DNA of 64,000 bases from the sequence record DRR378314_135. One strand, 5' to 3'. Position numbers and translations under genes: made by a program. Position 1 is the stretch's first letter. Each line of letters starts with the position of its first letter. The notes under the pieces are model-generated. The model did no database searches, was not told the origin of the DNA, and was given only the letters and a program-made list of their open reading frames with translations. Shown piece after piece: positions 5,143 to 61,379 of the stretch.

Positions 5143-5151
5143 ACGAACCTA

Positions 5152-5166
5152 TTCCACATTAAGAAA
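5152..5166. promoter_or_regulatory. Candidate IclR box TTCCACATTAAGAAA
   Basis: Imperfect TTCC-N7-GGAA palindrome directly upstream of iclR; similar boxes at 10947-10981. Confidence 0.5.
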
Positions 5167-5227
5167 AGCACATTCGCCGCCTCGCACTGCGCCAGTTGCA
5201 TAGATCTATTTTCAAGGCAGGCGCACG

Positions 5228-6364: not shown

Positions 6365-6378
6365 CGCGTCGATCCCCC

Positions 6379-7575: not shown

Positions 7576-7587
7576 AAAGGCCTCCGA

Positions 7588-8766: not shown

Positions 8767-8789
8767 TGGAAAATTCCTCTTCGAGGTGA

Positions 8790-15805: not shown

Positions 15806-15820
15806 GCAATCAGCGAGATG

Positions 15821-15850
15821 CAAAGGCCGCCCACTCCGGGGCGGCCTTTG
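15821..15850. terminator. Bidirectional terminator
   Basis: CAAAGGCCGCCC-loop-GGGCGGCCTTTG between convergent genes. Confidence 0.8.
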
Positions 15851-15863
15851 CCGTTAAAGCGTC

Positions 15864-17878: not shown

Positions 17879-17957
17879 GTCTTGTCCTTTGGATGACTAG
17901 ACTGATCGAGAGGAGGCGGAGCCGGTTGCCCAGAAGGCCTCCCGGCTCCGTCGCGGA

Positions 17958-18935: not shown

Positions 18936-18970
18936 AGGTTCGGTTCTCCCGTGTTGAATAGTTTTTATCG

Positions 18971-43530: not shown

Positions 43531-44409
43531 CTAGTCGGCTGCAATCAGCAACAGCTCCGCAGTGATGCATATCCGGTTTTCCGCAGTCGCCAGTTGTCCG
43601 GTGGCAAACCGCCCGTCAAATCCGACCGAGGCCGCATGGATTTCCGGCACGTCCCCCGCCTCCAGATGCCCCTGCGTCAGGAGAACTTCGGTTGCATAGC
43701 TCTGTTGACTGGCTTTGCCGTCAGTCTCTGACTGCTCTTTCACAAAACAGGTCCGGATCAAACTGCCAATACCTTCGATGCGCAGGGTCTCCCCCAAACC
43801 TTGGTCTGCCTGCACCGCGTGCGGCAGGAGAAGATCCGGGTCTTCATTCGGCCGGAGCCGACATAGAGCCGCTGCATGCCCCTGCTGATCGCTCACCTTG
43901 GCGCGCGCGACAGGCTCGAACAGATCAAACCCCGTCTCCGGATCCGGGTTCACCACAAACGCGGCACCGGATATACCCCAGCCGTGCGCACGCAGATCTT
44001 CGGAAAGGACAGAATGCGGCGCCAGCATGTGGCCCATGCAAGGTTCCGCCTGCGGTTCGGTCCATATGCCGTGGCAGTGCAGAAACGGTTTGCCTTCCCG
44101 AAGTCCGAGGTGCAGCCCGGCGTCCAGCACAGTAGCCGACCGCATCTGGTAGGTGCGACTGTACCAAGCTGCCCGCCCGTCCCCCGGCGCCACATCCGGA
44201 ATGACATAGCCTAGCCGCTCGAATTGCGCCTCAGACAACCGCAAGTACCCCGCTTCGAAACCGACCGCAGCAAACGCCTCCGCAACCGCTACATCAAAGG
44301 GCACCCCCGCACGCAAGGTCACGGCGAGCGGATGTGCCTGACACGCCTGTGAGTTATAGCGTTCGGGAGCACGTGGCCCCGGATGTTGCAGCCGACGCGC
44401 TTCGGTCAT
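43531..44409 (-). CDS. Tandem PPC/DUF296 (AF0104/ALDC-like) domain protein
   Basis: PFLHCHGIW...GH motif, FVVNPDPETGFDLF linker, second domain RLRPNED...GIGSL; ATGA overlap with the ligase. Confidence 0.7.
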   Translation of the reverse strand: MTEARRLQHPGPRAPERYNSQACQAHPLAVTLRAGVPFDVAVAEAFAAVGFEAGYLRLSEAQFERLGYVIPDVAPGDGRAAWYSRTYQMRSATVLDAGLHLGLREGKPFLHCHGIWTEPQAEPCMGHMLAPHSVLSEDLRAHGWGISGAAFVVNPDPETGFDLFEPVARAKVSDQQGHAAALCRLRPNEDPDLLLPHAVQADQGLGETLRIEGIGSLIRTCFVKEQSETDGKASQQSYATEVLLTQGHLEAGDVPEIHAASVGFDGRFATGQLATAENRICITAELLLIAAD

Positions 44410-46031: not shown

Positions 46032-47197
46032 TTCACCCGCTCCAGGATCGACACATAGTTGGTCACGGCAGCCCCTCCCATATTGAAGACGCCCGCCAAT
46101 GTTGCATCCCGGATCTGCATATCACCGGCCTCGCCAGCCAATTGCATGGCTGCCATAACATGCATCGACACGCCGGTGGCTCCGATAGGATGCCCCTTGG
46201 ACTTCAATCCACCAGAGGCGTTCACTGGCAGCTTACCATCCTTGCGCGTGATGCCATCGCGGATGACCCGCGCACCCTGCCCGCGTTCGGCGAGCCCCAT
46301 CGCCTCATACTCCAACATTTCGGCAATGGTGAAACAGTCGTGGGTTTCGACCAGAGACAGGTCATCGAGGGTGACGCCCGCCTGTTCGTAGGCAGCCCCC
46401 CATGCGCGACGAGCCCCTGCAAACTCCAGTACATCACGACGCGACAGGGCCATGATCTCATTGGAATGCGTGCGCGCCCGAAACGCGATGGCCCGCTCCA
46501 TCCCGGCCGCTGTCTCGGCATCCGCAAGGATCAGCACCGCTGCCCCATCCGAAACCAGCGAACAGTCCGTGCGTCGCAACGGTCCTGCCACCAACGGATT
46601 CCGGTCAGATATGGTATTGCAAAAATCTGTCCCGAAATCCTTCCGCATATGCGCGAGTGGATTCGACATACCGTTTGCATGGTTCTTCGCGGAAATCATC
46701 GCGAGAGCTTCGCTCTGATCGCCGTATCTCTGGAAATAGCTCCCCGCAATCTGACCAAACAATCCGGCAAAGCCACCCTCGATATCGGCCTCTTCCTTGC
46801 GATAGCTCGCCCCCAATAGGATATCACCCACCTGAGGCGTCGCGGTGGCAGTCATCATTTCCGCCCCCACGACCAATGCGATCCGTCCCCGACCAGCAGC
46901 AATGAAATCAAGCGCACCGTGCAATGCAGCGGATCCAGTCGCACAGGCGTTTTCATAGCGCGTCGCGGGTGTCGCAGCAAAACGCTCGTCTCCCATGGCA
47001 ACCAATGCGCCCTGAAAATCCTGTGCGGAGAAGCCGTTATTGAACACGCCCGCAAAAATTCCGTCCACCTCCTGCGGCAGGAGGCCGGCATGTTCCAGCG
47101 CCTCCGAAACCGCGGCAGCCATCAGAGCCTCGGTGTCTGGCAGCTCGGACTTGCCAAAGCGGGTATGCCCCCACCCCACGATCTGTGCTTCGCTCAT
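46028..47197 (-). CDS. SCP2/SCP-x-type thiolase
   Basis: ENACATG, HDCF, GHPIGATG, FNMGG fingerprints. Confidence 0.88.
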   Translation of the reverse strand: MSEAQIVGWGHTRFGKSELPDTEALMAAAVSEALEHAGLLPQEVDGIFAGVFNNGFSAQDFQGALVAMGDERFAATPATRYENACATGSAALHGALDFIAAGRGRIALVVGAEMMTATATPQVGDILLGASYRKEEADIEGGFAGLFGQIAGSYFQRYGDQSEALAMISAKNHANGMSNPLAHMRKDFGTDFCNTISDRNPLVAGPLRRTDCSLVSDGAAVLILADAETAAGMERAIAFRARTHSNEIMALSRRDVLEFAGARRAWGAAYEQAGVTLDDLSLVETHDCFTIAEMLEYEAMGLAERGQGARVIRDGITRKDGKLPVNASGGLKSKGHPIGATGVSMHVMAAMQLAGEAGDMQIRDATLAGVFNMGGAAVTNYVSILERVK

Positions 47198-47212
47198 CTG
47201 ATCATTTTCCTC

Positions 47213-48058
47213 CTAGTCGGTGCTGCCCGCGCGTCCGGGGCGATCCCCGTAGACCCGGGCCAGCGTTGTCTCGATTGTGGCCGCAGCTTGGCGAAGCTGT
47301 TCGGCCAGTTCAGTCCGGCGAGGTTGCTGCAAGCGGCTTTCGATCGCTGCGAGAGACAGAGCTCCGGCGACGCTTCCATCAGGGCGATGCAGCGCCACAC
47401 CAATACCCCACGAGCCCGGCACAACCAGCCCCGGGTTCAACGCGTAGCCGGTCTGTCGCGTGGCGTGGACTTGGGCACGAATGTCGTCAGCCTTAAGCAT
47501 GGGGAACTCACGTTGCAGAGTGGCAGCATTGGCGTCCAGCGCGGCCTCGACTTCAGCATCGGGCAGCGCCGCAAGAGTCGCCAGTGAACCCGCCCCGACG
47601 CCCAGCGGATGCAATCGTCCGGTCATCAGCGCGTAGGTGCGGATTGGATAGGTGCCTTCCTCGCGGTGCAAGCAGAGCGACGAATAGCCGCGGCGCACTG
47701 ACAGAAACACGGCATCCCCGCAACGTTGCGCCAATTCCGTGAGCGTTTCGAATGACAGCTCCAGGATGCCATGACGATGTGCCGCAAAGGTGCCAAGCAC
47801 ATAGCTCTCCTCGCCGAGGTAATAACGCCGTGTCTCCTGATTCTGCTCAACCATCCCGTTTCGCATCAACGCCAGCAAGAGTCGCCGCACCGTGGGTTTG
47901 TTCAGGCCGCTGTTTGCCACCAGATCGCCCAGACTTGCTCCATCGGCCATACAGCGCCCAACCATACCAAGCAAAGATAGCGCCCGATCCACCGACTGGC
48001 TTCCGGCAGAGGGAGATGAGTCGCGATCTTCGCTTTTAAATTCCATATTATGGACCAC
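47213..48058 (-). CDS. IclR-family transcriptional regulator
   Basis: SQSVDRAL, GLNKPTVRRLL, PLGVGAG, TGYALN. Start may be 48046. Confidence 0.92.
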   Translation of the reverse strand: MVHNMEFKSEDRDSSPSAGSQSVDRALSLLGMVGRCMADGASLGDLVANSGLNKPTVRRLLLALMRNGMVEQNQETRRYYLGEESYVLGTFAAHRHGILELSFETLTELAQRCGDAVFLSVRRGYSSLCLHREEGTYPIRTYALMTGRLHPLGVGAGSLATLAALPDAEVEAALDANAATLQREFPMLKADDIRAQVHATRQTGYALNPGLVVPGSWGIGVALHRPDGSVAGALSLAAIESRLQQPRRTELAEQLRQAAATIETTLARVYGDRPGRAGSTD

Positions 48059-48172
48059 CAGAAGCAGCTACATTCGGTAACAATTCGTCGAACACTCTAT
48101 ATTTGGAACATTTTGGAAGAATATTGCAACTTCTTCTTGTCCATAGGAATAACATTGTTCCATGATATGGAT
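48041..48172. promoter_or_regulatory. Two candidate IclR operators: TTCCATATTATGGAC (48041-48055) and TTCCATGATATGGAT (48158-48172)
   Basis: Near-identical TCCAT-N3-ATGGA palindromes at either end of the iclR/dctP divergent region. Confidence 0.65.
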
Positions 48173-48248
48173 CGAAACATCTCCACTTGCGGGGAAAGAG
48201 GCGTATATCCATCAGCGCGATGCTGACTTAGAGGTCTGGGAGGACGAC

Positions 48249-49253
48249 ATGACATTTTCGAAACTTGGCAAGACGGCGCTGGTGTCGGTGCTTGCTGGCG
48301 CCGTAATGGTCGGCGCGGCGACAGCTGAGACCCTGCGGCTGTCGCACAACACCGGCGACACCACGACATGGCACAAGGGCGCAGAGAAATTCGCGGACCT
48401 GCTGTCGGAGGCAACTGGCGGAAAGCTTGGCGTGCGCGTGTTCCCCAATGCACAGCTTGCGGGTGGCGACCAGATGCGACAGGCAGAAATGGTTGGGCGC
48501 GGCGCGCTGGATCTCGTGGTGACCTCGGCGATCAACGTAACGCCACTGGTGCCGGAAATGGCTGTGTTCTCCCTCCCCTACCTCTATTCCGACTACGCAC
48601 AGGTCGACGCCACGACCCAAGGCGCGCCCGGTGAAGAACTCTCCGAAATCCTTGCGGGCAAGGGCATTGTCGTGCTGGCCTGGGGTGAGAATGGCTTTCG
48701 TGAGGTGACCAACAACAGCCGCCCGATCCACAGCCCGGACGACATGAAAGGCCTCAACATGCGGGTCGCAGGCCCCATGTATATCGACGTTATGAACGCG
48801 CTTGGCGCCAATCCCCAGCAGATGCAGTGGGGCGAGACCATGACAGCATTGCAACAGGGCGTGGTTGACGGTCAGGAAAACCCGATCGGCGCGGTGATCA
48901 TCCCGCAGCAGGTCTACGAAGTGCAAAAATACCTGACCACATGGCACTATTCCTATGATCCGATCTTCATCGGCATCAGCCAGAAGAAGTGGGACGGATA
49001 TGACGCCGACATGCAAGCCACATTGAAGGCCGCCGCCGAAGAGGCGATGAGCTATCAGCGCGAAATCTCGCGCGAGGCGACAGCATCCGGCATCGCATTC
49101 CTGCGGGACAAAGGCATGGAGGTCTATGAACCTTCAGCCGAGGAACTGGCAGCCTTCAAGGCCGCAACGCAACCTGCGTTCGATGAGTGGGCGGCGAAGG
49201 TTGGTACCGATCTGGTGGCAAGCTTCGAGGCTGCCATCGACGGCGCCAAATAA
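48249..49253 (+). CDS. dctP: TRAP transporter substrate-binding protein
   Basis: Signal peptide, FPNAQL, ENGFRE, LNMRV, LQQGVVDGQENP. Confidence 0.93.
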   Translation: MTFSKLGKTALVSVLAGAVMVGAATAETLRLSHNTGDTTTWHKGAEKFADLLSEATGGKLGVRVFPNAQLAGGDQMRQAEMVGRGALDLVVTSAINVTPLVPEMAVFSLPYLYSDYAQVDATTQGAPGEELSEILAGKGIVVLAWGENGFREVTNNSRPIHSPDDMKGLNMRVAGPMYIDVMNALGANPQQMQWGETMTALQQGVVDGQENPIGAVIIPQQVYEVQKYLTTWHYSYDPIFIGISQKKWDGYDADMQATLKAAAEEAMSYQREISREATASGIAFLRDKGMEVYEPSAEELAAFKAATQPAFDEWAAKVGTDLVASFEAAIDGAK

Positions 49254-49283
49254 TCCTGCGGTATTATCCAGTACAAGAACCAA

Positions 49284-49318
49284 CCAATGCGCCGGGCCAA
49301 TACCCCCCGGCGCATTGG
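49284..49318 (+). other. Intercistronic stem-loop between dctP and dctQ
   Basis: CCAATGCGCCGGG...CCCGGCGCATTGG 13-bp stem with no U-tail; probably stabilises the dctP mRNA. Confidence 0.55.
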
Positions 49319-49334
49319 CGATGACGGAGGGGGC

Positions 49335-49823
49335 ATGTCCTTTATTCTGCGCGAGGCCGAGAAGATCATCTGCGCGGTGATCTTTCTGACCATGACCTTT
49401 CTCGGCTTTGCCAATGTGGTGGTGCGATACGGCACCCATTACTCTTTTGCGGCAACCGAGGAACTGCTGACCAATGGCTTTCTTCTGCTCACCGTCTTTG
49501 GCGCGGCAATCGCCGCTCGCAGGGGCGAACACCTGGCAGTGGGACTGATCTACGATTTACTGCCAAAACCAATGCGCCGCGTGGTCTTCGCAATGTCGGT
49601 ACTTGCCTCCACACTGCTGTTGACGCTGTCAGCTTGGTATTCATGGCAGGCTATGACCAACATGATGAGCAACGGCATGCGCTCCTACGGATTGGGACTG
49701 CCTGCCTGGTATTATCAGGCCGCGGTGCCATTTGGGTTTGCATTGGTTCTGATCCGCTACCTGCAACATGCATGGGAAACCTACACCATCGACCGTGCGC
49801 ACGAGGTCATCCCCGATGTATGA
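49335..49823 (+). CDS. dctQ: TRAP transporter small permease
   Basis: Four TM helices, TEEL, GEHLAV; GGAGG RBS. Confidence 0.9.
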   Translation: MSFILREAEKIICAVIFLTMTFLGFANVVVRYGTHYSFAATEELLTNGFLLLTVFGAAIAARRGEHLAVGLIYDLLPKPMRRVVFAMSVLASTLLLTLSAWYSWQAMTNMMSNGMRSYGLGLPAWYYQAAVPFGFALVLIRYLQHAWETYTIDRAHEVIPDV

Positions 49824-51150
49824 TGTGATCCCCGCCCTGCCCGCTGGCACAGAAATGATCATCTTGTTCTTTATGCTGTTGGCCCTGCGGGTTCCGGTGG
49901 CAATGTCACTGGGGCTTTCCGCGCTCTATGCGATGTGGCAGATGGGCTTCGGCTTAGAATTGGTGGGCGATCTTCTGGCGGCCGGCATCACCAAATTCTC
50001 ACTACTTGCGATCCCGTTCTTCATTCTTGCAGGGACCCTCATGGGCTCACTCGGCATCGCAGAACGTATGATACGCTTTTTCCGGGTGCTGATCGGCAGC
50101 ACCCCGGGTGGGATGGGTATCGTTGGAACCGCCGTCTGCCTGTTTTGGGGAGCCGTCAGCGGTTCCGGCCCAGCCTCGGTTGCCGCCATCGGACCGATGA
50201 TCATCAAGGGCATGGAAGAAGACGGGTATTCTCGCGCCTACGCTGCCGGGCTTGTCTGTACGGGCGCGGCGTTGTCGATCGTGATTCCGCCCTCAATCGG
50301 GCTGGTGATCTATGGCGTCATTGCCGAGACCTCAATCTCGAACCTTTTCCTAGCGGCGATCCTGCCCGGCCTGTTCATGGGCGCAATGATGCTACTGACA
50401 TTGCCGCTGGCAAAACCATCCAGCGGCCCCGCCGAAGCTCCCACTGTCGTAGCTCTCAGCCCGATGCCCCACGCAGCACAACCCTATGCGACCCGCCTCT
50501 GGCTGTCGTTTTGCGAGAGCTTCTGGGGCCTTATGACTCCAGTGGTGATCCTGGGCGGCATTTACTCCGGCATTTTCACGCCGACCGAAGCCGCATTGGT
50601 CGCAACCGTCTACGCATTGCTCGTCGGCGGTCTGGTCTATCGCACCCTTACCCTGCGGGGGCTATATCAGTCTCTTTCGGATGCAGCCGCCTCTTCGGCC
50701 ACGGTGATGCTAGTGGTCGCATACGCCAGCCTCTTTGGCTGGGTGGTCACGGTCGAAGATCTGGTTGGGCAATATTCCGATGCGCTTCTGGGTCTCAGTG
50801 GCAACGAATGGGTGATCCTGCTGGTCATCATGGTGATCCTGCTCATCGCCGGAATGTTCATGGATGCGGTGACAGTGATGTTCATCTGCCTGCCGATCCT
50901 GATGCCCGTCGTACGTGAACTCGGCTGGGATCCGATCTGGTTTGGTGTGCTGGTCATGGTCAATCTCGCCATTGGCCTCATCACACCACCCGTTGGCATC
51001 AACCTATATGTCGCAGCCAATGTAACGCGCCTTCCGATCGAAAAAGTCGCCCGTGGCGCAATGCCCTTTCTCTTCGTATGCCTGATCGGCCTTGCGGTGA
51101 TCGGCTTCGTTCCACAACTGTCTCTGGGCCTGCTAGGCCCCTCCAACTGA
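49816..51150 (+). CDS. dctM: TRAP transporter large permease
   Basis: LAIPFFILAG, SGSGPA, VIPPSI, FTPTEA, ITPPVGINL. Confidence 0.93.
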   Translation: MYDVIPALPAGTEMIILFFMLLALRVPVAMSLGLSALYAMWQMGFGLELVGDLLAAGITKFSLLAIPFFILAGTLMGSLGIAERMIRFFRVLIGSTPGGMGIVGTAVCLFWGAVSGSGPASVAAIGPMIIKGMEEDGYSRAYAAGLVCTGAALSIVIPPSIGLVIYGVIAETSISNLFLAAILPGLFMGAMMLLTLPLAKPSSGPAEAPTVVALSPMPHAAQPYATRLWLSFCESFWGLMTPVVILGGIYSGIFTPTEAALVATVYALLVGGLVYRTLTLRGLYQSLSDAAASSATVMLVVAYASLFGWVVTVEDLVGQYSDALLGLSGNEWVILLVIMVILLIAGMFMDAVTVMFICLPILMPVVRELGWDPIWFGVLVMVNLAIGLITPPVGINLYVAANVTRLPIEKVARGAMPFLFVCLIGLAVIGFVPQLSLGLLGPSN

Positions 51151-51163
51151 GGACCCGAGATAT

Positions 51164-51916
51164 ATGTCAGAAAAAACCGCCATCGTTACCGGCGCCGCAC
51201 GCGGCATTGGCCTTGCCACGACAAAGCAACTCCTTGCCGAAGGCCGCCAAGTCGCGATGATCGACCGTGATGCAGACGTACTGATGCAGGAAGCTGGCGC
51301 GCTCGAAGGGGTGCTGCCCGTCGTCTGTGACGTGTCGGATCCGGATGCTGTCGCTGAAATGATGTCGACCTGCTACAGCGCGTTTGGCCGCATCGACGCC
51401 GTGGTCAACAACGCAGGCGTGGCGGATTTCGGCCCCATCGAAGACACAAGTTTTGCCCGCTGGCGTCGAGTGATGGAAACCAACCTCGACGGCGTGTTCC
51501 TCTGCTCACAGGCCGCAATCCCGCATCTGAGAGAAAGCAAGGGCGCCATCGTCAACATCGCGTCGATTTCAGGCCTGCGGGCTTCCACCCTGCGTGTGGC
51601 CTACGGAACATCCAAAGCAGCGGTGATTCAACTGACCATGCAGCAGGCCGCAGAGCTGGGCGAATATGGCATCCGCGCCAACTGTGTCGCACCGGGCCCG
51701 GTGCGCACCAAATTGGCAATGGCTGTTCATAGCCAGGAAATCATCGATGCCTACCACGATGCCATTCCCCTCAACCGGTATGGGTCGGAGGACGAGATTG
51801 CATCTGTCATCGTATTCCTGTGCTCGGACAAGGCCAGCTATGTCACCGGACAGACTATCGCATCCGACGGCGGCTTTCAGTCCACCGGAGTCGGTCTCCC
51901 TGCCCTGCGCGTCTGA
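51164..51916 (+). CDS. Short-chain dehydrogenase/reductase (SDR)
   Basis: TGAARGIG, NNAG, YGTSK (YxxxK), PG. Confidence 0.93.
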   Translation: MSEKTAIVTGAARGIGLATTKQLLAEGRQVAMIDRDADVLMQEAGALEGVLPVVCDVSDPDAVAEMMSTCYSAFGRIDAVVNNAGVADFGPIEDTSFARWRRVMETNLDGVFLCSQAAIPHLRESKGAIVNIASISGLRASTLRVAYGTSKAAVIQLTMQQAAELGEYGIRANCVAPGPVRTKLAMAVHSQEIIDAYHDAIPLNRYGSEDEIASVIVFLCSDKASYVTGQTIASDGGFQSTGVGLPALRV

Positions 51917-51933
51917 TTTTCCACTGTAATTTG

Positions 51934-51962
51934 AACCAGCCGGGCCCGATGCCCGGCTGGTT
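51934..51962 (+). terminator. Terminator-like hairpin after the SDR gene
   Basis: AACCAGCCGGGC-ccgat-GCCCGGCTGGTT. Confidence 0.7.
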
Positions 51963-52080
51963 GCTGTGCCTGATAGGGTTCGATTGCAGCGGTTGAAGAT
52001 CTGATCCACGGGATCACGCCGATTTTCACGACCGCGCAGCCCAATGCTTTTCTCGTACCCGAATCCTTGTTAGGGTTCGC

Positions 52081-53124
52081 GTGATTTTAAAGCTTAGGAT
52101 TTATCCATTGGAAACGGTATCTTGCCCACCGCCGTGGAACCGCTTTTGTTCGCTCAATCAGGTTTCGCCAGAACCGGAAGCAGAGCATCAGTTGCTCAAT
52201 CCGAATTTTTCACCGATCTCAAACGCCTCGGACTTTGATGCTAAACTGCTTGATGAGCTCGTTCCTCAAGCATCGTCCGACACCCCCCTGAAGCTGTTTG
52301 CGCTGCTCGGTGCCCGCCGCAGCAGTTTTTTGAAAGACTTGCTGGATATCTCGGGGCTGCCTCATGCCTGTCTCTATGATCTGGACCAAGATAATGATGA
52401 CGATGGTGCTGGGGCCCCCTGGCTTGTAGAGCTGGATCCGGGATCGCCCTTCACTGCCAGCACGTTCACCCTCGACCCCGAAGCGAAGGATCCACGCAGG
52501 ATGTTCGGTGACGGGATCTGGATCTGGAGCCCACTTTCATTGCAGGCGTTGCGGGCGCATCTGCGCCGCTACACACGGTTCGAAGACGAGCGGTCGGTCT
52601 GGATGCTGTTCAGACTGCAGGAACCTGGCATGTTGGATGCCCTGCTCCAGACCGCGCCCTGCGAGGCCCGAAGGCGTTTCTTTTCCGGCATTCACCGTAT
52701 CATCTACCCTTGGCCCGCGCTCACAGAGGGGGAATGGGACCTTTTCGCAATGGAGCCTCCAACCTCCTCAACGCAAAACACCTCGTCTGATGCTGGTGGC
52801 CGCATGCTGCTGGAGCAGCGCGCACGCAAGGCTCTCGCCTGTTTCGTCAACGACCGCACTGCGCGAAAGCTTGCGGCCGGCGAAATTCAAGTGCCCGAAG
52901 AACGCCCTGCCGCCTGTGACGTGTTCTTTCGCCTCCTGAACGCAGGCTACGATCACCCTCCCCGCCTGGTGGAAACATTCCGGCTGCTACAGCGCTGCCC
53001 GCCCGATGCGGCGCCACAGTTCTGGCATGAAGTTGAAAGCGGCGAACATTCTTTGCGGCGAATACTGCTGGTCTTTGCGGATCACTACAAAATCAAAGAT
53101 GTCCTAGAGGAGCATGTCTGGTGA
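52081..53124 (+). CDS. DUF4123-domain protein (T6SS effector chaperone/adaptor type); start uncertain
   Basis: FALL.A, CLYD, APWLVEL, GIWIWS..SLQALRAHLRRYT, LFRL..P pattern. Confidence 0.75.
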   Translation: MILKLRIYPLETVSCPPPWNRFCSLNQVSPEPEAEHQLLNPNFSPISNASDFDAKLLDELVPQASSDTPLKLFALLGARRSSFLKDLLDISGLPHACLYDLDQDNDDDGAGAPWLVELDPGSPFTASTFTLDPEAKDPRRMFGDGIWIWSPLSLQALRAHLRRYTRFEDERSVWMLFRLQEPGMLDALLQTAPCEARRRFFSGIHRIIYPWPALTEGEWDLFAMEPPTSSTQNTSSDAGGRMLLEQRARKALACFVNDRTARKLAAGEIQVPEERPAACDVFFRLLNAGYDHPPRLVETFRLLQRCPPDAAPQFWHEVESGEHSLRRILLVFADHYKIKDVLEEHVW

Positions 53125-54968
53125 GCATCTGTGTAGAATGTGGCGAACTCGAACTCTACTACGTGCCAGCCTGCGGTGACCCGGCTGTCGGTGAGAGCAA
53201 GATCCTGCTCTACTCCGGCGAGGAGCTTCAGGCCTTGCATGCGGAAATCCGAGAGATGGATGCGGCCTTTGGGGCATTGGAAGAGGCCAAGGTCGACGGT
53301 GAGCCTCAGGCCATTGTCGACGCGCAGGATCACCTGACAATCCTGCTCAAGGGTTATATCAAGCCAACTGAAAACCTGCCGTCAAAACACCTGGTGCAGG
53401 CCTACTCGATCACGGGCAAGAAATGGACCCGCATTCGCAGTGACAAGATGCGCAATCACTGGCGCAGCTACAATGTCGACAAGTCGTTGCTGCGCGCACA
53501 ACAGGGCACGGATGGACGGTCCGCGCTGGCACGCACGCAATTGCGTGACGCGTTCAAGGCAAGCGCCAAGAAGATCTCGGACGATCTGCAAAGAGGGATT
53601 TCCTACAATGGACAGATTGCGAAAGGGGTCGTCAGCGGATCAATTACCGAGTTGTGGGACGCCAATTGGCTGAAATGGGTCGATGCCGTCAATGAAAGCC
53701 TGACATATTCAACCGAAAATGCACATTTCGACCTTTCCGCCGGAGCGCAGCTACTGCGCGGGTATGCAGGCTATGGCGTGCAATTGGGATATGACCCCAA
53801 GAAAGGCAGCTACGCGCTGAAAGGCAACGCGGAAGCCAAGGCAATCCTTGGCGAAGCGAAGGTAAGGTTCAGCGGCTACTTCGTCGACCGCGAGGGCTGG
53901 CACGCATTGGTTGATTTTACGGATGAAAAGGCCTCGGAAGCAGGACACCAGCAGCAGATCGATTTTGGCTATTTCCGCTTCCAGCTCCGGGTTGATGCAA
54001 CCGCCATGCTCGGTGCCAGTATCTACGGCACCGCAGGCATCGAATTTGCCACCGAACCAAGCGGCAGCGTCCGCGTCAAACCGACCGCTGCAGGCAGCAA
54101 GGGCGAAATTTCCGCCGGAGCCTTCGCCGGTGTCGAGGCCGGCGGAACCGCAACCGGCATGTTCGAATGGCGCAATCCTGGCTTCACAGAAGGCGAAGAC
54201 GGTCGATTGCAAGAAGCCGGTTGGAAGGCCATGGTCTCGATCGGGACGTCGGTTCTGGGAGCGGCTGGCGCAGGCGCCGAGGCGACGCTCAAGATCCAGT
54301 TTGAGAATGGCAAGTTCATGTTTCGCTGCGAGGCCCGTGTGGTGCTCGGGATCGGCGCCAAGGGTGGACTGAATGGGCTGATCGATTTCCGTCGCATCGT
54401 TGAATTCATCCAGTACATCTACCATCAGCTCAAGGATAACAATTTCGCGTTCCTACGATTTGTAGAGGAAGCCGCGTTCAACGCGATGGTTCAGGTCACA
54501 CTGCTGCTCGTCGAAGGCATTGTGGATGTTGCCGATGCCGCAGTTGAAGTGATCGAGGCCGCGTTGACGCGAGCGTTTGAACCCATCGCAGATGCCAACG
54601 CGGCAGAGGCCTTTGCACGGAAGGTGCAAGCCCGTCCAACGGCATTGATTTTTGCCGCACCGGAAGCAAAGGGCGCCATTCTTTATAAACTCTCCGAGAG
54701 ATTTGTATGGTCTTGGGAGGAGCGCCAGGAGGCCGCGATTCTAACGGTGATTGGCACCCTGCAGTCCCGCCGAGAGTGGGAGCAGGTCGTTGAACGCATT
54801 ACAATAGACGGTACGAAATCCAGCGCTGCAACAGGTCTTGCGCGGCTTCGCGCCGTTCTGGATGGCGGATCTGAGCGGAAGTTTGAATCGATGATCCGCG
54901 CAATCAACACTCTGCCGCCCGCCACACTGTATGCAGGGACACCTGTTGTCGTAAGGAACCTCGCGTGA
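53121..54968 (+). CDS. Putative antibacterial effector/toxin of unknown activity (615 aa)
   Basis: GTGA overlaps with both neighbours; no signal peptide; Gly/Ala-rich C-terminal half; lies between the DUF4123 and FGE-like genes. Confidence 0.6.
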   Translation: MSICVECGELELYYVPACGDPAVGESKILLYSGEELQALHAEIREMDAAFGALEEAKVDGEPQAIVDAQDHLTILLKGYIKPTENLPSKHLVQAYSITGKKWTRIRSDKMRNHWRSYNVDKSLLRAQQGTDGRSALARTQLRDAFKASAKKISDDLQRGISYNGQIAKGVVSGSITELWDANWLKWVDAVNESLTYSTENAHFDLSAGAQLLRGYAGYGVQLGYDPKKGSYALKGNAEAKAILGEAKVRFSGYFVDREGWHALVDFTDEKASEAGHQQQIDFGYFRFQLRVDATAMLGASIYGTAGIEFATEPSGSVRVKPTAAGSKGEISAGAFAGVEAGGTATGMFEWRNPGFTEGEDGRLQEAGWKAMVSIGTSVLGAAGAGAEATLKIQFENGKFMFRCEARVVLGIGAKGGLNGLIDFRRIVEFIQYIYHQLKDNNFAFLRFVEEAAFNAMVQVTLLLVEGIVDVADAAVEVIEAALTRAFEPIADANAAEAFARKVQARPTALIFAAPEAKGAILYKLSERFVWSWEERQEAAILTVIGTLQSRREWEQVVERITIDGTKSSAATGLARLRAVLDGGSERKFESMIRAINTLPPATLYAGTPVVVRNLA

Positions 54969-55984
54969 TGAAAATCGGAACTGCTGCGCTATGTCTGGCC
55001 GTCTTAGCTGTGACTGCTGCCAGTGCCTATTGGGGCTATGGGAAATATGAGCAAAAACAACTCCATTCCGCGCTTGTAGAGAAGATCCGCAGCGATCTGG
55101 TCTACATCGAAGGCGGGGACTTCGAGACAGGGAATTACAAGATTGATTTCCAGTTCCCCAGTGGCGCGCGACGCTTGGTTTCGATCGTGGAAGACATGCC
55201 GCTGCCATCGCGCCGCGTGACGCTGGAGAACTACTATCTCTCGGCCTATGAAACGAGCTACTCCGACTTCAACGTTTATCTGCGCGCGCAAGGCTATCCG
55301 GTTCTCGAACCTCAGGAGTACCGCCGCTACCTTCCGGATCACGCCGCCGCCCTATCGCTGGAGGAGGCATCCGCGTATTGCGCATGGCTGGGAGAACAGG
55401 TCGGGACAATCATGCGCCTGCCGACAGAAGCCGAGTGGGAATTTGCCGCACGCAGTCGAGGGCAAAATCCGGCTTGGGCCACGGATGACGGGAATTTTCG
55501 GCCTGGCGAAAACCTTGCCTATCTGGTGACCGATGATCTGACCGCAGCAGACCGGGACCCGCCGATCGGAAGCTATCCTCCGAACCCACTGGGTTTGTAC
55601 AATCTTGCCGACGGTCTCTACGAGTGGGTGTCGGACCGCGCCCCTTCGGATCCAGATGGTTCCGCAATAGGCAAAGGTGCGAGCAACTTCACATCCCGGT
55701 TCACCGAGGTCATTCCACGCCGCATCGTTGTGGAGCGTCTGACTGACAAAGCTCGGGACGACCTGCTTCAGGTGCTTGCGCCGGAAGATCGGCAACGCCT
55801 GATGCGCCAGAAAGATCCGCTAAGCCCGTATCGCAGCCGGGTAACCGCCCGATGCGCCGCGTCGGAAACACGCGAACCTGCTCAGTCCGGTTTTGGAACG
55901 ACACCAGGCCCGGTCCAATTCAACCCGCCGTTCTATGCCGAGGGCGAGCACCCTCCCTTGGTCACCGCGCCCGCCGGAGAATGA
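54965..55984 (+). CDS. Formylglycine-generating-enzyme-like (SUMF1/EgtB/PvdO) protein, putative immunity protein
   Basis: N-terminal signal/TM, GGDF..G, AYCAWL, RLPTEAEWEFAAR, PNPLGLYNL...YEWV; catalytic Cys pair and RGGSW not seen. Confidence 0.8.
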   Translation: MMKIGTAALCLAVLAVTAASAYWGYGKYEQKQLHSALVEKIRSDLVYIEGGDFETGNYKIDFQFPSGARRLVSIVEDMPLPSRRVTLENYYLSAYETSYSDFNVYLRAQGYPVLEPQEYRRYLPDHAAALSLEEASAYCAWLGEQVGTIMRLPTEAEWEFAARSRGQNPAWATDDGNFRPGENLAYLVTDDLTAADRDPPIGSYPPNPLGLYNLADGLYEWVSDRAPSDPDGSAIGKGASNFTSRFTEVIPRRIVVERLTDKARDDLLQVLAPEDRQRLMRQKDPLSPYRSRVTARCAASETREPAQSGFGTTPGPVQFNPPFYAEGEHPPLVTAPAGE

Positions 55985-56136
55985 AAGTAGCTTTGCAGCA
56001 ACTGCAAGAACCGGGTTAGCGCGATGCCTGTTGCGCCGGAACCAGAAAAGCTGAGCGGGCAGCAATATTCGCAGCTGAAACGTAAAGGCGGCACGGGTTG
56101 CCCCGCGCCGCTTTCATTCTTCGAGTGCGCGTGAGC

Positions 56137-57225
56137 TTACTCTGCGCAGGCCCGAATTTTCTCAATGTCGGGGCCATTCGGGTTGCGGCCGAGGTTGAAT
56201 GGTGCGGAGGCCGCGCGCCAGTTGGAGTAATCCGCAAGATATTCGAGCTGGCTCAGGTAGACTTTTGCCGAGGATGGGTTTTCACAAGCCACATTCTCGA
56301 TCACCGCGTTGGCGGTTTCCTGAATTTTTGCCAGCGCTTCGTCGTCCATACGCGTGATCTCGTTAACTTCGAGGAACTGCTTATAGGCATCATTCGCCCG
56401 GCGCTCGGTGAAGGCCAGCGACCACAGCATCGTCGCGTCGGCGGCAATCTCCAGCTTTTCCTGAGCTTCCGGGCTCAGCGCATCCCAGGACGCCTTGTTG
56501 ATCATCACGCCAAAAACAGATGCAGACTGATGCCAACCAGGCGTTGCCCAGTAACCGGTCACCTGCTGGAACCCACCAGACCAGTCCACGTTTGGCGTGG
56601 AGAATTCCGCTCCGTCGATCACGCCGCGCTCCAGAGATTGGTAAATTTCACCACCAGCCATGGAGACCTGGCTGCCGCCAAGCTCGTTGAGAAGCCGGCC
56701 CTGCTCGAGACCCGACACCCGAAGACGCTTGCCCTGCAGATCGTCGATCGAACGGATCGGTTCCTTGGTGTGAAAACCAGACTCGTTGTTGGTCACCGCG
56801 TAGGGAAGATAGACCATGCCGAACTTGCCATAGGTCTCGTTATAAATTTCCTTGCCACCCCACTGCTGAATCCAGTTCACGTAGTCGACTGCGTTGAACA
56901 AACTGGAGGTGGTGGCGAGCGGCGAAAAGGCCGGGTCACGGCCCGCCCAGTAGCCAGGCCAGTCTGCGCCAGCTTGCACGATCCCGCTCTCGACGGCACC
57001 GAAAACTTCGCCTGACGGCACCAGGCTGCCCCCTTCAAAGAACTCAATGCTGACTTCGTCGCCCGCGAGCTTGTTCGCAAGCTCGACGAAATGCTTGTCG
57101 AATTCGATCAGTTCGAGCGACGAAGGCCAGGTTGTGGTCATCTGCCAGCTTTGCTGCGCAGATGCCGCACCAGCGGCCATGGTCACGGCGAAGGTGGCCG
57201 AAGCCAGCGTCTTTCCAAGTGTCAT
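56137..57225 (-). CDS. dctP: TRAP substrate-binding protein (TakP-like, monocarboxylate/2-oxoacid)
   Basis: WQMTTTWP, GYWAG, LRVSG, GGEIYQSLERGVIDGAEF, PGWHQ; GGAGGAG RBS. Confidence 0.9.
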   Translation of the reverse strand: MTLGKTLASATFAVTMAAGAASAQQSWQMTTTWPSSLELIEFDKHFVELANKLAGDEVSIEFFEGGSLVPSGEVFGAVESGIVQAGADWPGYWAGRDPAFSPLATTSSLFNAVDYVNWIQQWGGKEIYNETYGKFGMVYLPYAVTNNESGFHTKEPIRSIDDLQGKRLRVSGLEQGRLLNELGGSQVSMAGGEIYQSLERGVIDGAEFSTPNVDWSGGFQQVTGYWATPGWHQSASVFGVMINKASWDALSPEAQEKLEIAADATMLWSLAFTERRANDAYKQFLEVNEITRMDDEALAKIQETANAVIENVACENPSSAKVYLSQLEYLADYSNWRAASAPFNLGRNPNGPDIEKIRACAE

Positions 57226-57248
57226 AGAGATCTCCTCCTGTCTCATTT

Positions 57249-58574
57249 TCAGTTTGGTTTGTAGAGCGCTTCCGGCAACCAGGTGACGAGCTGCGGAAAC
57301 AGCGCGATTGCAATAGCCATCATCAGGATCAGACCGATGAAGGGCAGAACGCCAATAATGATGTCGGAGGTGCGTACCTCCTTTGGTGCCAATGCACGCA
57401 GATAGAACAGCGCATACCCGAAGGGAGGCGAAAGGAAGGAGGTCTGCAACACGACAGCGGTCAGAACCACGAACCACAATTCGCTGACGCCCATTTCCCG
57501 CACGATAGGCAGGAAAATCGGGAAGGACAGCAGCACGATGCCAGTCCAGTCAAGGAACATGCCGAGGATGAAGATGATGAACATCATCACAGCAATCAGC
57601 ATCCATGGCTCCATTTCGAGCGACCGCATCAACTCCTGTGCGGCACGCAGACCGCCCGTGATATTGAACACCCCCGTAAACGCGGTTGCCCCCACAACGA
57701 TGAACAGGATCATCGCTGACGTGCGTGCGGTTTCATGCAGGGCGGAGCGGAAGGTGCCCCACTCAAAACGCCCCCGGAAAATCACAATCCCAAGCGCCAG
57801 CGCTGCGCCGATCGCCGATGCCTCTGTTGCGGTGGCAATCCCAGCAAGCATAGTGCCCAGGATTCCAAAAATCAGCACCAGCGGAGGCAATGCTTCGAGC
57901 ACCAGCATCCGCAGCAATGTTCCGCGTGAGACCTTCTCATCAAGCGCCACAGAGGGAGCCAGATCGGGCCGGAACATCGCGACCAGTGCGACATAGCCCG
58001 CGTAGAGCAAACCAAGGATAATGCCCGGCCCCATCGAACCGGCGAATAGTTCGCCAACAGACAGCGATGAGTTCGACGCCATGAGGATCAGCATGATCGA
58101 GGGGGGGATCAGGATCCCCAGACACCCGGACGCTGCGATCACCCCGGTGGTAAGGCGCTTGGAGTACCCGTATTGCAGCATCGGCTTGAGCGCCATTACC
58201 CCCATAACGGTGATCGAGGCACCGATGATGCCAGTGGTTGCCGCCAGCAGGATCGAGATAAACACCACCGCGAGCCCCAACCCACCGGTAACACGCGACA
58301 TCAGAAGGCGCAGTGTCTCAAACATTCGATCCGTCACGCCTGAATCGGACAGGAACCGCGCCATCAGCACAAACAACGGAATCGCGATAAGGATGTAGTT
58401 ATCGAGAACCTCGCCGTAGATACGGTTGATGACGATGCCCAGCACCATAGGCTTGCCCGCGATGATCGCACCAAGCACAGCAGTGCCGCCAAGAACAAAG
58501 GCTAGAGGGTGGCCCATGAAGAGGCCGGTCAGCAACAAGCCCGCCATAATTAGACCGATGATCTCACCCGACAT
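57249..58574 (-). CDS. dctM: TRAP large permease
   Basis: AIPLFVLM, ATTGIIGAS, LIPPS, ATATEA, QTSFLSPPFG. Confidence 0.93.
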   Translation of the reverse strand: MSGEIIGLIMAGLLLTGLFMGHPLAFVLGGTAVLGAIIAGKPMVLGIVINRIYGEVLDNYILIAIPLFVLMARFLSDSGVTDRMFETLRLLMSRVTGGLGLAVVFISILLAATTGIIGASITVMGVMALKPMLQYGYSKRLTTGVIAASGCLGILIPPSIMLILMASNSSLSVGELFAGSMGPGIILGLLYAGYVALVAMFRPDLAPSVALDEKVSRGTLLRMLVLEALPPLVLIFGILGTMLAGIATATEASAIGAALALGIVIFRGRFEWGTFRSALHETARTSAMILFIVVGATAFTGVFNITGGLRAAQELMRSLEMEPWMLIAVMMFIIFILGMFLDWTGIVLLSFPIFLPIVREMGVSELWFVVLTAVVLQTSFLSPPFGYALFYLRALAPKEVRTSDIIIGVLPFIGLILMMAIAIALFPQLVTWLPEALYKPN

Positions 58575-59067
58575 GGTGCTGCTCCGATTTCTTGAGGATG
58601 AGCTTCAGGACCTCTGAAATGCCCTGAATGGCCAGAAGCACTGCAGCGATCGCCATGGCGATCTTGACCGGATAGACCGGGATTTGAATGGCACCATAAG
58701 TGGTCTCGTTCTGCGCATAGGAGCGCAGTGCGAACTCCCAACTTTTGCTTACAAAAATCCAGCAGAAGGGAAAAAAGAAAATCAGATAGCCAAGCACGTC
58801 AACAGCCCGACGCAACGGCGGAACCAGGTTTTCGGTGAGCAAATCGACACGGACATGCGCCTGATGACGCAACGCGTAGCCCCCAAGCATCACGAAGTAA
58901 AACCCGTAGAGCATCTTGGTAAGATCGAACGCCCAAAGCGTCGGAGCATTGAAGCCGTACCGCATGATCACGTCGTAGATAATCATGCCTGCAAATATGA
59001 TGGCAATAAAGGAGACCGCCTTGCCGACGACCTCGTTCAGCCCGTCAACGAGACGGATCAGAACCAT
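58564..59067 (-). CDS. dctQ: TRAP small permease
   Basis: DVIMRYGFNAPT.W, HVRVD, four TM helices. Confidence 0.92.
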   Translation of the reverse strand: MVLIRLVDGLNEVVGKAVSFIAIIFAGMIIYDVIMRYGFNAPTLWAFDLTKMLYGFYFVMLGGYALRHQAHVRVDLLTENLVPPLRRAVDVLGYLIFFFPFCWIFVSKSWEFALRSYAQNETTYGAIQIPVYPVKIAMAIAAVLLAIQGISEVLKLILKKSEQHHVG

Positions 59068-59179
59068 TGTGATTTCCTCCCTGCAAAGGCACCTGCAAAC
59101 CTGTCGCGAACCTTTTGGCGTAGACTAGGCAGCGCACTCGCGTTTGACATGGAGAAATCTGCAGACCATTACTGCAGAT

Positions 59180-60109
59180 ATGCAGAACAGCTTCGACTGG
59201 AATGACCTCAAGGTTTTTCTCACGCTACATCGCATGAAACGCATGACAGACGCAGGCAAGGTGCTTGGCGTCGATCAGACGACGATTGCCCGCCGTATCA
59301 AGGCACTGGAGGCATCGATCGGAACACATCTTTTTGTGCGCAGGGCGGACGGGTTTGAGCTGACGCAAGCCGGACACCGGATCCTGCCCTTCGCCCTTGA
59401 CATCGAACAATCGGGGGAACAGCTGCACGAAGAGGTTTCAGGCCAAAATAAGCGCCTGTCGGGCCGGGTCCGCGTCGGTGCGCCTGACGGCCTGGGTACC
59501 TTTTTTGTGCCCTCGATTCTCACTCATTTCCAACAGGATCACCCGGATGTCGACATCGAGGTCGTCGCCAGTTCGCGCGAGTTTCGCATTGCCGAACAGG
59601 AGGTGCATCTCGCGCTCTGCCTGTCATTGCCCGAAAGTGGCCGCCTGTTGGCCCGCAAGCTTGCTGACTATCACCTGTATTTCTTCGGGTCGGCAGAATA
59701 CATTGAGAAGCACGGCACACCTCAGGAACTGAGTGAGCTGCAGGGACACCGTCTCGTTGGCTATATCTCCGATATGCTATTCTCACCGGAGGTTCGTTTT
59801 CTGGAAGAACTCGGTTTGCGCGAAATGGTGCGCTTTGCCTCAAGCTCCATGGCAGCACAGCGCGAAGCCATTCGCTCCGGGGCGGGTCTCGGAATCCTGC
59901 CCCGGTTCATGTCCCTGAACGATCCGAGCCTCGTGCCCGTCCTAACCGAGCGCTATCTTCTCAAACGTACAGTTTGGATTGTGAGCCATCAAAGCACCGA
60001 AGATCTGGCCCGCGTCCGCTCGGTCTCCGAATACCTCCAGCGCTCCGCCAGATCTCGACGCGGCGATCTGTTGCTGCCGGACGATCTTGGGCAACCCGGG
60101 CCGAGGTGA
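59180..60109 (+). CDS. LysR-family transcriptional regulator
   Basis: DWNDLKVF, TTIARRIKALE...LF.R, LT.AG, substrate-binding domain; divergent from the TRAP operon. Confidence 0.93.
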   Translation: MQNSFDWNDLKVFLTLHRMKRMTDAGKVLGVDQTTIARRIKALEASIGTHLFVRRADGFELTQAGHRILPFALDIEQSGEQLHEEVSGQNKRLSGRVRVGAPDGLGTFFVPSILTHFQQDHPDVDIEVVASSREFRIAEQEVHLALCLSLPESGRLLARKLADYHLYFFGSAEYIEKHGTPQELSELQGHRLVGYISDMLFSPEVRFLEELGLREMVRFASSSMAAQREAIRSGAGLGILPRFMSLNDPSLVPVLTERYLLKRTVWIVSHQSTEDLARVRSVSEYLQRSARSRRGDLLLPDDLGQPGPR

Positions 60110-60157
60110 CCAGCTGCTGCAGCGTGTTGGCCGACTACAAGCCACGCTGATTGAAGC

Positions 60158-60262
60158 TTTGGTGGCGTCAAATCCAGCGGCTATGGGCGCGAAGGCGGCA
60201 CCGATGGATTGAAGAGCGACCTCACGACGCACAACGTTTGATCCAGCGCCGAAATCGCCTGA
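60158..60262 (+). pseudogene. Aldehyde dehydrogenase C-terminal remnant
   Basis: Manual translation FGGVKSSGYGREGGTDGLKSDLTTHNV*SSAEIA*; no start and no upstream domains. Confidence 0.7.
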
Positions 60263-60339
60263 ATGGCCTTTCCACACAGATGTCGATCTTGGATTTATCA
60301 TGCAGTACAATATGATAGATGGAAACATACGGGCAGTTT

Positions 60340-60701
60340 GAAGGAGACTATCGCCGACAGCGGCAACGCACGACCCGCCTGGCCCGCCTGGCCATCGGGT
60401 TGCCGTCGAGGGTGGTCATCACTGCACCTGCGTCCCCGGGTACGTTGAGCAGGATCGACGAGATCCTCCCACCATATTCCGCACCGTAGTATATACCGGC
60501 CAGCAGGATCAGCGCCGCCTCGGGCTGGAAACCCAAACCGTAGGCGATGGGCAGCAGGATCGCCACACCGTTGATGGGAGCAAGGCCCGGAAGTGAACCG
60601 ATCAGCGTGCCCACAAAGCAGCCGACCAGCACCAGCATGAGGTTGACCGGATCGAGGGCGACGGCAAAGCCTGTCGCGAGACCGGAAAACACCGCGTCCA
60701 T
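60340..60701 (-). pseudogene. tctA: Tripartite tricarboxylate transporter TctA, frameshifted and truncated
   Basis: GTLIGSLPGL, YYGAEYGGRISSILLNVPG...TTLDG.PMAR, then GQAGRALPLSAIVSF in another frame, then similarity is lost (about 120 of about 500 aa). Confidence 0.85.
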
Positions 60702-61123
60702 CAGTTGGCCTCCGTTTCAAAGCGTTCGAGCAGGGCTTCGATCAACGCGCCCTCCGGCGGGTTAAGATCCATCAGGCTCACGCACAGCAGCCAGCCGAGA
60801 ATACCGGCCGCAATGCCAAATGCCAGCGCACGCCAGCGCGGCGCACCCAGCATCCGCGCGAGGATGGTGTCGAAAATGGCGGTTGAGACAATGAAACCCA
60901 GTGGTTCGTAGAGGCGCCCGTAGGCGAGCAGCATGACAATTACGGCAGCTAGGTGGAACCATACCTTTTGGGTCAGCTCCAGGCTGTCGATGTCCGGCTT
61001 CCAAAGCACGCGCGCCAGACACAGGGTGGCGACAATGGACAGGATTTGGGGCCAGCTTTCGGGCCCGAGCGAGTCGTATTGGAACGGTGCCTGGATAACG
61101 GTGAACGCGATGATCGCGTATGC
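60701..61123 (-). pseudogene. tctB: TctB, 5'-truncated
   Basis: In-frame AYAIIAFTVIQAPFQYDSLGPESWPQILS...LGFIVST...LNPPEG; native start missing. Confidence 0.7.
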
Positions 61124-61260
61124 GCAGCAATGCGGAATGGGGCATTGGATGCACCGTATCCCTTGTAGCCACCGTTCCTCTGCACGATTTCTAAGAACAT
61201 GTCGCCCGCGTAGAGCCGGGAATAAACTGGAAGAAAGTGCTCGCCTTGATCGACGCCGTA
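61123..61260 (-). pseudogene. C-terminal remnant of an HPPD-like/QuiC1 (dehydroshikimate dehydratase fusion) gene
   Basis: FLPVYSRLYAGDMFLEIVQRNGGYKGYGASNAPFRIAA matches the FFEIV.R..GY.GYGA.NAP.R.AA terminus of that family. Confidence 0.65.
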
Positions 61261-61379
61261 CCCTGGCGTCACACCAGCGAAATCCGCGGCCCTACCAACC
61301 CGCCCGCCCTCGCATGTGTACAGCACAACAAAACAGCACGCCCCGGTGCGGGACACGCTGTCTGCCTTTTGAAGTCAAT

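Follow-up and report, generated by a model that had tools for sequence, protein, structure and literature searches.

The window analyzed here, a 64,000-nucleotide stretch of sequence record DRR378314_135, carries a three-gene cassette that very probably encodes a type VI secretion system (T6SS) effector-immunity module. The three co-directional open reading frames (ORFs) lie on the + strand at positions 52081 to 53124 (347 amino acids, aa), 53121 to 54968 (615 aa), and 54965 to 55984 (339 aa). The first encodes an adaptor of the DUF4123 (Tap/TEC) type; the second, a putative cargo effector from an unnamed toxin superfamily; and the third, a protein with the formylglycine-generating enzyme (FGE)-sulfatase fold that is predicted to act as a periplasmic immunity protein. 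A first-pass annotation of this DNA had described the genes as chained by GTGA overlaps, and we confirmed the coordinates, the lengths, and both junctions: at each, the GTG start overlaps the TGA stop of the preceding gene. A Shine-Dalgarno-like motif, GAGGAG, lies 9 nucleotides (nt) 5' of the effector start. For the FGE-like gene, the ATG at position 54968 is an equally possible start and would yield a protein of 338 aa.

The product of the first ORF matched the Pfam family DUF4123 (PF13503) with an E value of 4.5e-13 and 49.9 bits against a cut-off of 25.8. The match covered residues 72 to 197 and spanned profile positions 1 to 117 of 119. This gene has its most upstream possible start at the GTG of position 52081, and in an alignment with four homologues similarity begins at residue 6. 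The adaptor gene is joined to the effector gene by the 4-nt overlap, and the same arrangement, with the adaptor directly 5' of the effector, was found in all seven Rhodobacterales loci compared below as well as in two loci from other bacteria (L036 and L037). DUF4123 is described as a T6SS-specific adaptor family in the available parts of the Tke5 paper (PMC13133200) and of a second study (PMC6833914). The usual place of such a gene, which is not obligatory, is after vgrG; here the gene lies elsewhere, with no VgrG-like sequence found in the 64-kb window.

The third ORF product matched the Pfam family FGE-sulfatase (PF03781; E = 8.3e-23, 81.8 bits against a cut-off of 23.3), so that the family assignments made for both outer genes in the first-pass annotation stand. 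Its best solved relatives were human FGE (E = 1.7e-14) and PvdO (E = 6e-10). The alignment to these structures ends near residue 224, and the catalytic cysteine pair of FGE presumably lies beyond about that point. In FGE, the active-site cysteines hold copper. The protein from the window has cysteines at positions 10, 139, and 297 only, and in 13 of 13 homologues a single cysteine, that of the conserved RC motif itself, was found in the interval from W221 to this motif. A catalytic FGE needs two active-site cysteines according to the available text of Lopez et al. (10.1101/2021.05.21.445229; also J Bacteriol 203:e00281-21). With the cysteine pair absent, the protein does not fit a catalytic formylglycine-generating enzyme.

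Residues 1 to 22 of the FGE-like protein are hydrophobic and, judged by sequence, may form an export signal or a membrane anchor. An N-terminal hydrophobic segment was present in all 13 homologues, and the five gammaproteobacterial ones carry lipobox-like sites. We predict that the protein is a periplasmic immunity protein; its gene adjoins that of the effector, and a T6SS was found in seven of seven other genomes that carry the cassette. A complex prediction for the effector and residues 28 to 339 of the FGE-like protein, in which alignments were not used, scored 0.00 against a mark of 0.34, which is evidence neither way.

The 615-aa product of the middle gene had been described as an unknown effector, and in our searches no Pfam family scored above its cut-off and no NCBIfam model matched at an E value of 1 or below. 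In a collection of 5.8 billion proteins, we found 45 homologues, 44 of which were full-length (603 to 629 aa) and 42 to 73% identical, the remaining one being the window's own protein read from a later start. None of the 45 has a Pfam domain, and the names given to them are all "hypothetical" or "uncharacterized." Named sources of these homologues are Thioclava, Paracoccus, Yoonia, Litoreibacter, Ascidiaceihabitans, and further Rhodobacterales. A profile built from 35 homologues and run against 1.84 billion representatives retrieved 674 clusters (defined at 50% identity) at E values of 1e-3 or below, 240 of them at 1e-30 or below. This superfamily ranges over Alphaproteobacteria and Gammaproteobacteria, together with one Cupriavidus record. 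Its members, where annotated, are named after an N-terminal LysM domain or called hypothetical. For the effector, the ESM Atlas returned only unnamed clusters, and our literature search, which reached few subscription journals, found no named description of the toxin core; Datasets S1 to S4 of Lopez et al., which cover Tsi3 homologues and their neighbors, may mention it.

Many members of the superfamily are longer than the window's effector and carry the match to it at their C-terminus. Nine long relatives were scanned for N-terminal domains. Four begin with VgrG (Phage_GPD, with Phage_base_V, Gp5_C, or DUF2345), and two of these four also contain PAAR; one has LysM, one has a VasX_N match just below the cut-off, and three showed no family. 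Two of the long relatives are named VgrG by their sources. The VasX_N-like relative (P0065) is distant, and its VasX_N-like N-terminus precedes the effector core. At the other end of the size range, the close Rhodobacterales homologues share a distinctive N-terminus: within residues 1 to 25 (window 53121 to 53200), C4, C7, and C18 are invariant in 35 of these proteins and form a small beta-hairpin in the structural model described below. The module is missing from the relatives with a VgrG or LysM fusion, whose match begins only at about profile position 25 to 30. This pattern suggests that the Rhodobacterales subfamily may use the C4/C7/C18 module as its handle for loading. Such a handle may bind metal.

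We compared the cassette across seven Rhodobacterales loci (L007, L008, L009, L010, L012, L044, and L045); an eighth, L011, was excluded for having the same ORF table as L010. The order of adaptor, effector, and FGE-like gene was the same in all seven, and the neighboring genes varied from locus to locus. A vgrG gene was present within the available flank in two of the seven, both from Celeribacter. In Celeribacter naphthalenivorans (L009), the cassette lies inside an effector island with two further DUF4123 modules, and vgrG follows about 4.3 kb downstream of the cassette on the other strand. One of these modules pairs DUF4123 with a Tle1-like phospholipase. The other pairs it with ORFs of 689 and 349 aa that have no Pfam family and may represent another uncharacterized effector-immunity pair. 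The island coordinates on L009 are 13101 to 16662 (+), 5605 to 8767 (-), and 17125 to 19113 (-). In Celeribacter ethanolicus, the cassette is situated amid metabolic genes. The ORF tables of L010 and L011, which are two contigs of one C. ethanolicus assembly, are identical over 12 kb around the cassette, which means either that a large region is duplicated or that the assembly contains one piece of DNA two times. In Thioclava sp. SK-1 (L007), a reverse-transcriptase gene (RVT_1, positions 4370 to 5842) that may be a group II intron is found some 3 kb upstream of the cassette and is the sole mobility-type gene that we saw near any copy. We also asked how the cassette is distributed relative to the secretion system itself. 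The gene tssC was detected in all seven other Rhodobacterales carrier genomes (five of five reached through the first related loci and two of two in the family sample), against a background of 77 among the 301 genomes that make up the family sample. As three of the seven carriers are Celeribacter, they are not independent.

Beyond the Rhodobacterales, a relative of the effector was present in 8 of the 401 genomes of a phylum-wide sample. In Vibrio, Marinobacter, Pseudomonas, Cronobacter, and Klebsiella, the relative is encoded directly after vgrG, with or without a DUF4123 gene. Four loci with full-length matches have an FGE-like gene directly beside the effector gene, its product matching that of the window at phmmer E values of 1e-26 to 4e-29. 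Upstream genes were scanned in three of these loci. L036 and L037 read VgrG, DUF4123, LysM-effector, and FGE-like gene, the last being on the opposite strand in L036; L039 reads Hcp, VgrG (DUF2345), effector, and two tandem FGE-like genes. The fourth, L038, has the same ORF layout as L037. In the sources, the effectors of Vibrio and Marinobacter are called "LysM domain-containing protein," and the Pseudomonas immunity protein is assigned to the "SUMF1/EgtB/PvdO family." The annotation of Cronobacter dublinensis plasmid pA137-1 lists Hcp, TssH, VgrG, a hypothetical protein of 770 aa, two SUMF1/EgtB/PvdO genes, PAAR, and TssM, and the 770-aa protein matched the hidden Markov model of the effector family at 5e-106 over positions 12 to 616 of 627. 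A Klebsiella pneumoniae record (L046, NZ_CP079635.1) holds VgrG, a relative of the effector that is split over several ORFs, and three whole FGE-like genes plus a fourth that is split in two. This record is filed as a 1.04-Mb plasmid with only five annotated features.

One further Vibrio locus has a different set of genes after the effector. On L041, at positions 3633 to 7615 (-), three tandem ORFs for lipoproteins of about 380 aa, with no Pfam family, follow the gene for a 1,257-aa LysM effector that matches part of the toxin core only. These lipoproteins may be a different immunity family serving a sister branch of the toxin.

We searched the window for genes of the secretion apparatus by tblastn with 60 query ORFs. 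Of these, 16 were taken from the T6SS locus of G001, the nearest genome, and others were ORFs of gammaproteobacterial loci, including VgrG, Hcp, and ClpV-sized genes. The only matches within the cassette came from relatives of the effector and the immunity protein, and one unrelated query ORF matched elsewhere in the window. The N-terminal parts of four VgrG or VgrG-PAAR proteins gave zero matches in the 64 kb, and PAAR was covered by two PAAR-bearing queries only. Within this scope, the first-pass statement that the window lacks vgrG, PAAR, hcp, and tss genes was upheld. For the rest of the genome, we turned to public reads, among which one run holds 91% of the cassette's sampled words. Contigs of that run with a depth of 106 to 123 align at 80 to 90% identity to parts of the T6SS locus of G001, tssC included. 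The sample that contains the cassette thus seems to contain a diverged T6SS as well, an indirect indication of a T6SS in the window's own genome.

Taken together, the VgrG, PAAR, and LysM fusions of the relatives, the loci in other bacterial classes that read vgrG, tap, effector, and FGE-like gene, and the presence of tssC in seven of seven other carriers strongly suggest that the cassette is a T6SS effector-immunity module. On the same evidence, the first-pass proposal of an adaptor-effector-immunity module situated apart from vgrG, with loading in trans, is well supported. The fuller reading, which joins T6SS delivery to loading in trans and to immunity by binding, we consider probable, with somewhat less assurance. 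According to this reading, the adaptor would place the 615-aa effector on a VgrG spike whose gene lies elsewhere in the genome, and the T6SS would fire it into the periplasm of neighboring Gram-negative cells. The FGE-like protein, anchored in the membrane and facing the periplasm, would bind the effector and so shield the producer and its kin, as Tsi3 does with Tse3 in Acinetobacter.

Several observations weigh against this interpretation. The tblastn search found no vgrG, hcp, tss, or PAAR gene in the 64-kb window, and no sigma-70-like promoter was detected upstream of the cassette by a scan that covers alphaproteobacterial promoters poorly. The nearest genome, G001, has a T6SS but lacks both the cassette and the surrounding 17 kb. 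The effector is rare, occurring in 2 of the 301 genera-representative genomes of the family sample. The T6SS-like contigs are short pieces at 80 to 90% identity, from a run of 1.8 million contigs that is not a clean isolate assembly. Finally, at four loci (L040 to L043) with weaker partial matches in proteins of 1,071 to 1,257 aa, the downstream genes are others, e.g., for lipoproteins or a Sel1-like protein, with no FGE-like gene among them.

Some of these points would fit a defensive or decaying leftover, a cassette without a matching spike or a working T6SS whose FGE-like gene is kept against the effectors of neighbors. No vgrG or PAAR was found in 64 kb, the cassette lies inside a 17-kb stretch absent from the nearest genome, and immunity arrays without a matching effector are described in the available text of Lopez et al. 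(10.1101/2021.05.21.445229). We regard such a leftover as improbable, however, given that the three ORFs are intact and translationally coupled and retain the residues that are invariant in the family, that tssC is present in all seven other carrier genomes, and that the run with the cassette contains T6SS-like contigs of equal depth. A smaller probability still attaches to a function outside the T6SS, in which the FGE-like protein would be an active enzyme maturing or modifying the 615-aa protein or another substrate, or in which another contractile injection system would deliver the module. The FGE fold does include true enzymes (FGE, PvdO, and EgtB), and LysM proteins belong to the core of extracellular contractile injection systems in the accessible portion of PMC10673891. 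Yet the catalytic cysteine pair is missing in 13 of 13 homologues; the relatives are fused or adjacent to VgrG proteins with T6SS_Vgr, DUF2345, or Gp5_C and lie beside Hcp, TssH, and TssM; and DUF4123 is specific to T6SS as far as PMC13133200 and PMC6833914 describe it.

To consider how the effector might act once delivered as cargo of a T6SS, we modeled it with AlphaFold2 from 101 aligned sequences (mean pLDDT, 77.8; an earlier model from 35 sequences reached 62.2). The core of the model consists of long beta-hairpins, with strands at residues 230 to 254, 279 to 311, 332 to 351, 368 to 395, and 398 to 422, and the C-terminal domain is helical with a pLDDT of about 95. Glycine makes up 16% of the core and alanine makes up 14%. 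Family-averaged hydrophobicity alternates residue by residue along the core strands, giving a beta-moment of 1.08 in the core versus 0.53 and 0.42 in the flanking domains. Across the 101 sequences, 39 positions are conserved at a level of at least 80%, and the only polar ones are Q210, R213, E245, R286, and E515. Invariance is limited to R213, F335, and four glycines. No set of Asp, His, Ser, or Cys residues is conserved across these sequences, and for lack of such a catalytic set the effector is probably not an enzyme. Searches for a known fold returned little. With two effector models, Foldseek found nothing in the PDB at an E value of 0.001 or below, and a wide VIA-align search gave only generic helical-repeat matches to residues 448 to 603 (best Z scores, 7.6 and 6.3). 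A profile search of PDB sequences with the effector gave zero matches.

Because the core is built from amphipathic, Gly/Ala-rich beta-hairpins and no catalytic residues are conserved, we tentatively favor the idea that the effector is a non-enzymatic, membrane-inserting toxin acting from the periplasm. The Gly/Ala-rich core of 20- to 30-residue amphipathic hairpins would insert into a membrane from the periplasmic side and render it leaky. A more specific proposal is that the core is a T6SS-delivered pore-former of the beta-hairpin (beta-barrel) type, neutralized by a periplasmic FGE-fold protein, with the C4/C7/C18 module taking the place of LysM, PAAR, or VgrG as the handle to the spike; as a whole, this proposal is speculative and rather unlikely. 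The idea of a pore is weakened by several points: it derives from a pattern in the sequence and from a model in which the hairpin tips have a pLDDT below 50, no solved pore-former or other fold matched the effector in whole-model searches, and an amphipathic sheet could equally pack against protein.

The main alternative to membrane insertion retains the same module. In this case the effector would form no pore but would act on the cell wall or some other target in the envelope, either enzymatically or by binding. We rate this reading slightly below membrane insertion, and it draws on several observations. An N-terminal LysM is found in many relatives, and proteins of this type are annotated as degrading the cell wall (in the available text of PMC13694042); the immunity protein is predicted to be periplasmic; and Tse3, which is likewise paired with an FGE-fold protein, appears without an assigned activity in the parts of the literature available to us. 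However, the role shown for LysM in T6SS effectors is in loading onto VgrG, not necessarily in acting on peptidoglycan (PMC10673891, available part), so that LysM on the relatives need not mean a cell-wall target. An enzymatic role in the envelope is also at odds with the lack of a conserved Asp, His, Ser, or Cys set across the 101 sequences, and the effector matched no hydrolase family or fold.

The first-pass annotation had singled out the cassette as a candidate for an undescribed system. That claim did not hold, as the published pattern of Tse3-Tsi3 already joins FGE-like immunity to DUF4123, VgrG, and an effector whose function is unknown, and orphan T6SS cassettes are known as well. In the available text of Lopez et al. 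(10.1101/2021.05.21.445229), the Tsi3 family of Acinetobacter baumannii ATCC 17978 comprises FGE-fold proteins without catalytic cysteines that act by binding Tse3. Tsi3 homologues are often found in arrays, mostly in groups of four, and on the strand opposite the effector, in neighborhoods that contain VgrG, Hcp, PAAR, and DUF4123. The Acinetobacter effector, abTse3, has 1,001 aa and is listed with "no conserved domains" in the portion of PMC6833914 available. The window's immunity protein shares with Tsi3 the FGE fold without catalytic cysteines, and relatives of the pair have FGE-like genes in tandem arrays and on the opposite strand; in Klebsiella and Cronobacter, these arrays follow vgrG and the effector, as do those of Tsi3 homologues. 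This likeness is one of gene context and FGE features and not of sequence comparison with Tse3 or Tsi3. In contrast to Tse3-Tsi3, the immunity gene of the window is single, co-directional, and translationally coupled, and the module has a DUF4123 gene, lacks vgrG, and resides in an alphaproteobacterium, a marine member of the Rhodobacterales. The cassette is thus a distant orphan member of a described kind, the DUF4123-loaded T6SS module with FGE-type immunity.

Two other known groups resemble the cassette in part. The order of adaptor, large effector, and envelope immunity protein recalls the BTH_I2691/VasX family, represented by Tke5-Tap3-Tki5 of Pseudomonas putida (PMC13133200) and VasW-VasX-TsiV2 of Vibrio cholerae. 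The same set of N-terminal fusions (VgrG, PAAR, LysM, and MIX) is reported for that family in the available sources, and a membrane target is proposed for both. Membership in BTH_I2691/VasX was nevertheless rejected: NCBIfam NF041559 and Pfam VasX_N did not match, and hhalign against eight members gave a probability of 0.2. The accessible part of PMC13133200 presents Tke5 as a mainly helical protein for which transmembrane helices are predicted, whereas the core of the window's effector consists of beta-hairpins. At the BTH_I2691 loci that we scanned (L013 to L015 and L023), four of four upstream genes encode DUF4123, and among seven downstream genes, five encode DUF6708 and none is FGE-like. 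Adaptor type and immunity type thus assort independently. The second group comprises orphan T6SS cassettes such as the accessory MIX-effector operons of Vibrio parahaemolyticus (PMC9765294, available part), which likewise lie in variable DNA away from the T6SS cluster and vgrG and are presumed to be loaded in trans. Orphan cassettes marked by MIX or FIX are often located beside mobility genes in that account, whereas the window's cassette has its own DUF4123 gene, no MIX match, and no mobility gene among its scanned neighbors.

The surroundings of the cassette are metabolic in character. Upstream lies an operon encoding a TRAP transporter (dctPQM) and a short-chain dehydrogenase (SDR). The downstream side holds a convergent TRAP operon, which has a terminator-like hairpin of its own, and beyond it a LysR regulator. 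A perfect 12-bp hairpin with a 5-nt loop, AACCAGCCGGGC / GCCCGGCTGGTT, can be read from the sequence at 51934 to 51962 (+), 18 nt past the SDR stop, and is likely the end of the upstream TRAP-SDR operon. It has no T-run, and the consensus terminator scan did not list it for that reason. With this qualification, the cassette does lie between a hairpin and an unrelated TRAP operon, as first described. On the downstream side, the terminator scan identified a G+C-rich, terminator-like hairpin of the convergent operon at 56088 to 56111 (-), which forms the 3' bound of the cassette. A separate 8-bp hairpin with a T-rich stretch, at 52060 to 52079, abuts the GTG of the DUF4123 gene and might act as a weak terminator, have a regulatory role, or be there by chance, two sites of this type being found versus 4.6 expected in shuffled sequences.

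The G+C content of the cassette, 0.54 to 0.62, shows no contrast with that of its neighbors. The ten largest other ORFs of the window matched only metabolic, transport, chemotaxis, and signaling families in Pfam, apart from one ORF without a family. Positions 44001 to 61309, a segment that includes the two TRAP operons, regulators, and the cassette, have no counterpart in G001, and 95% identity to that genome resumes at position 61310. The cassette therefore sits in a variable region of wider extent and does not form a clean insertion of 4 kb.

The interest of the cassette lies in its middle gene, which represents a large and widespread toxin superfamily without a Pfam or NCBIfam model. The steady pairing of this superfamily with FGE-fold immunity genes ties it to the Tse3-Tsi3 type of locus. 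The short, LysM-less version of the Rhodobacterales, a 615-aa protein with its own adaptor and a single immunity gene, offers a compact model from a non-pathogen for working out the activity. To our knowledge, the T6SS pore-formers characterized so far (VasX, Tke5, Tse4, and Ssp6) are helical or glycine-zipper proteins. If the proposed mechanism is true, a beta-hairpin pore would be a mechanistically new class among them, and it would give an activity to the FGE-paired effectors of the Tse3 type, listed as "function unknown" since 2016. The cassette also extends FGE-type immunity to the marine Rhodobacterales, where about a quarter of the sampled genera carry a T6SS.

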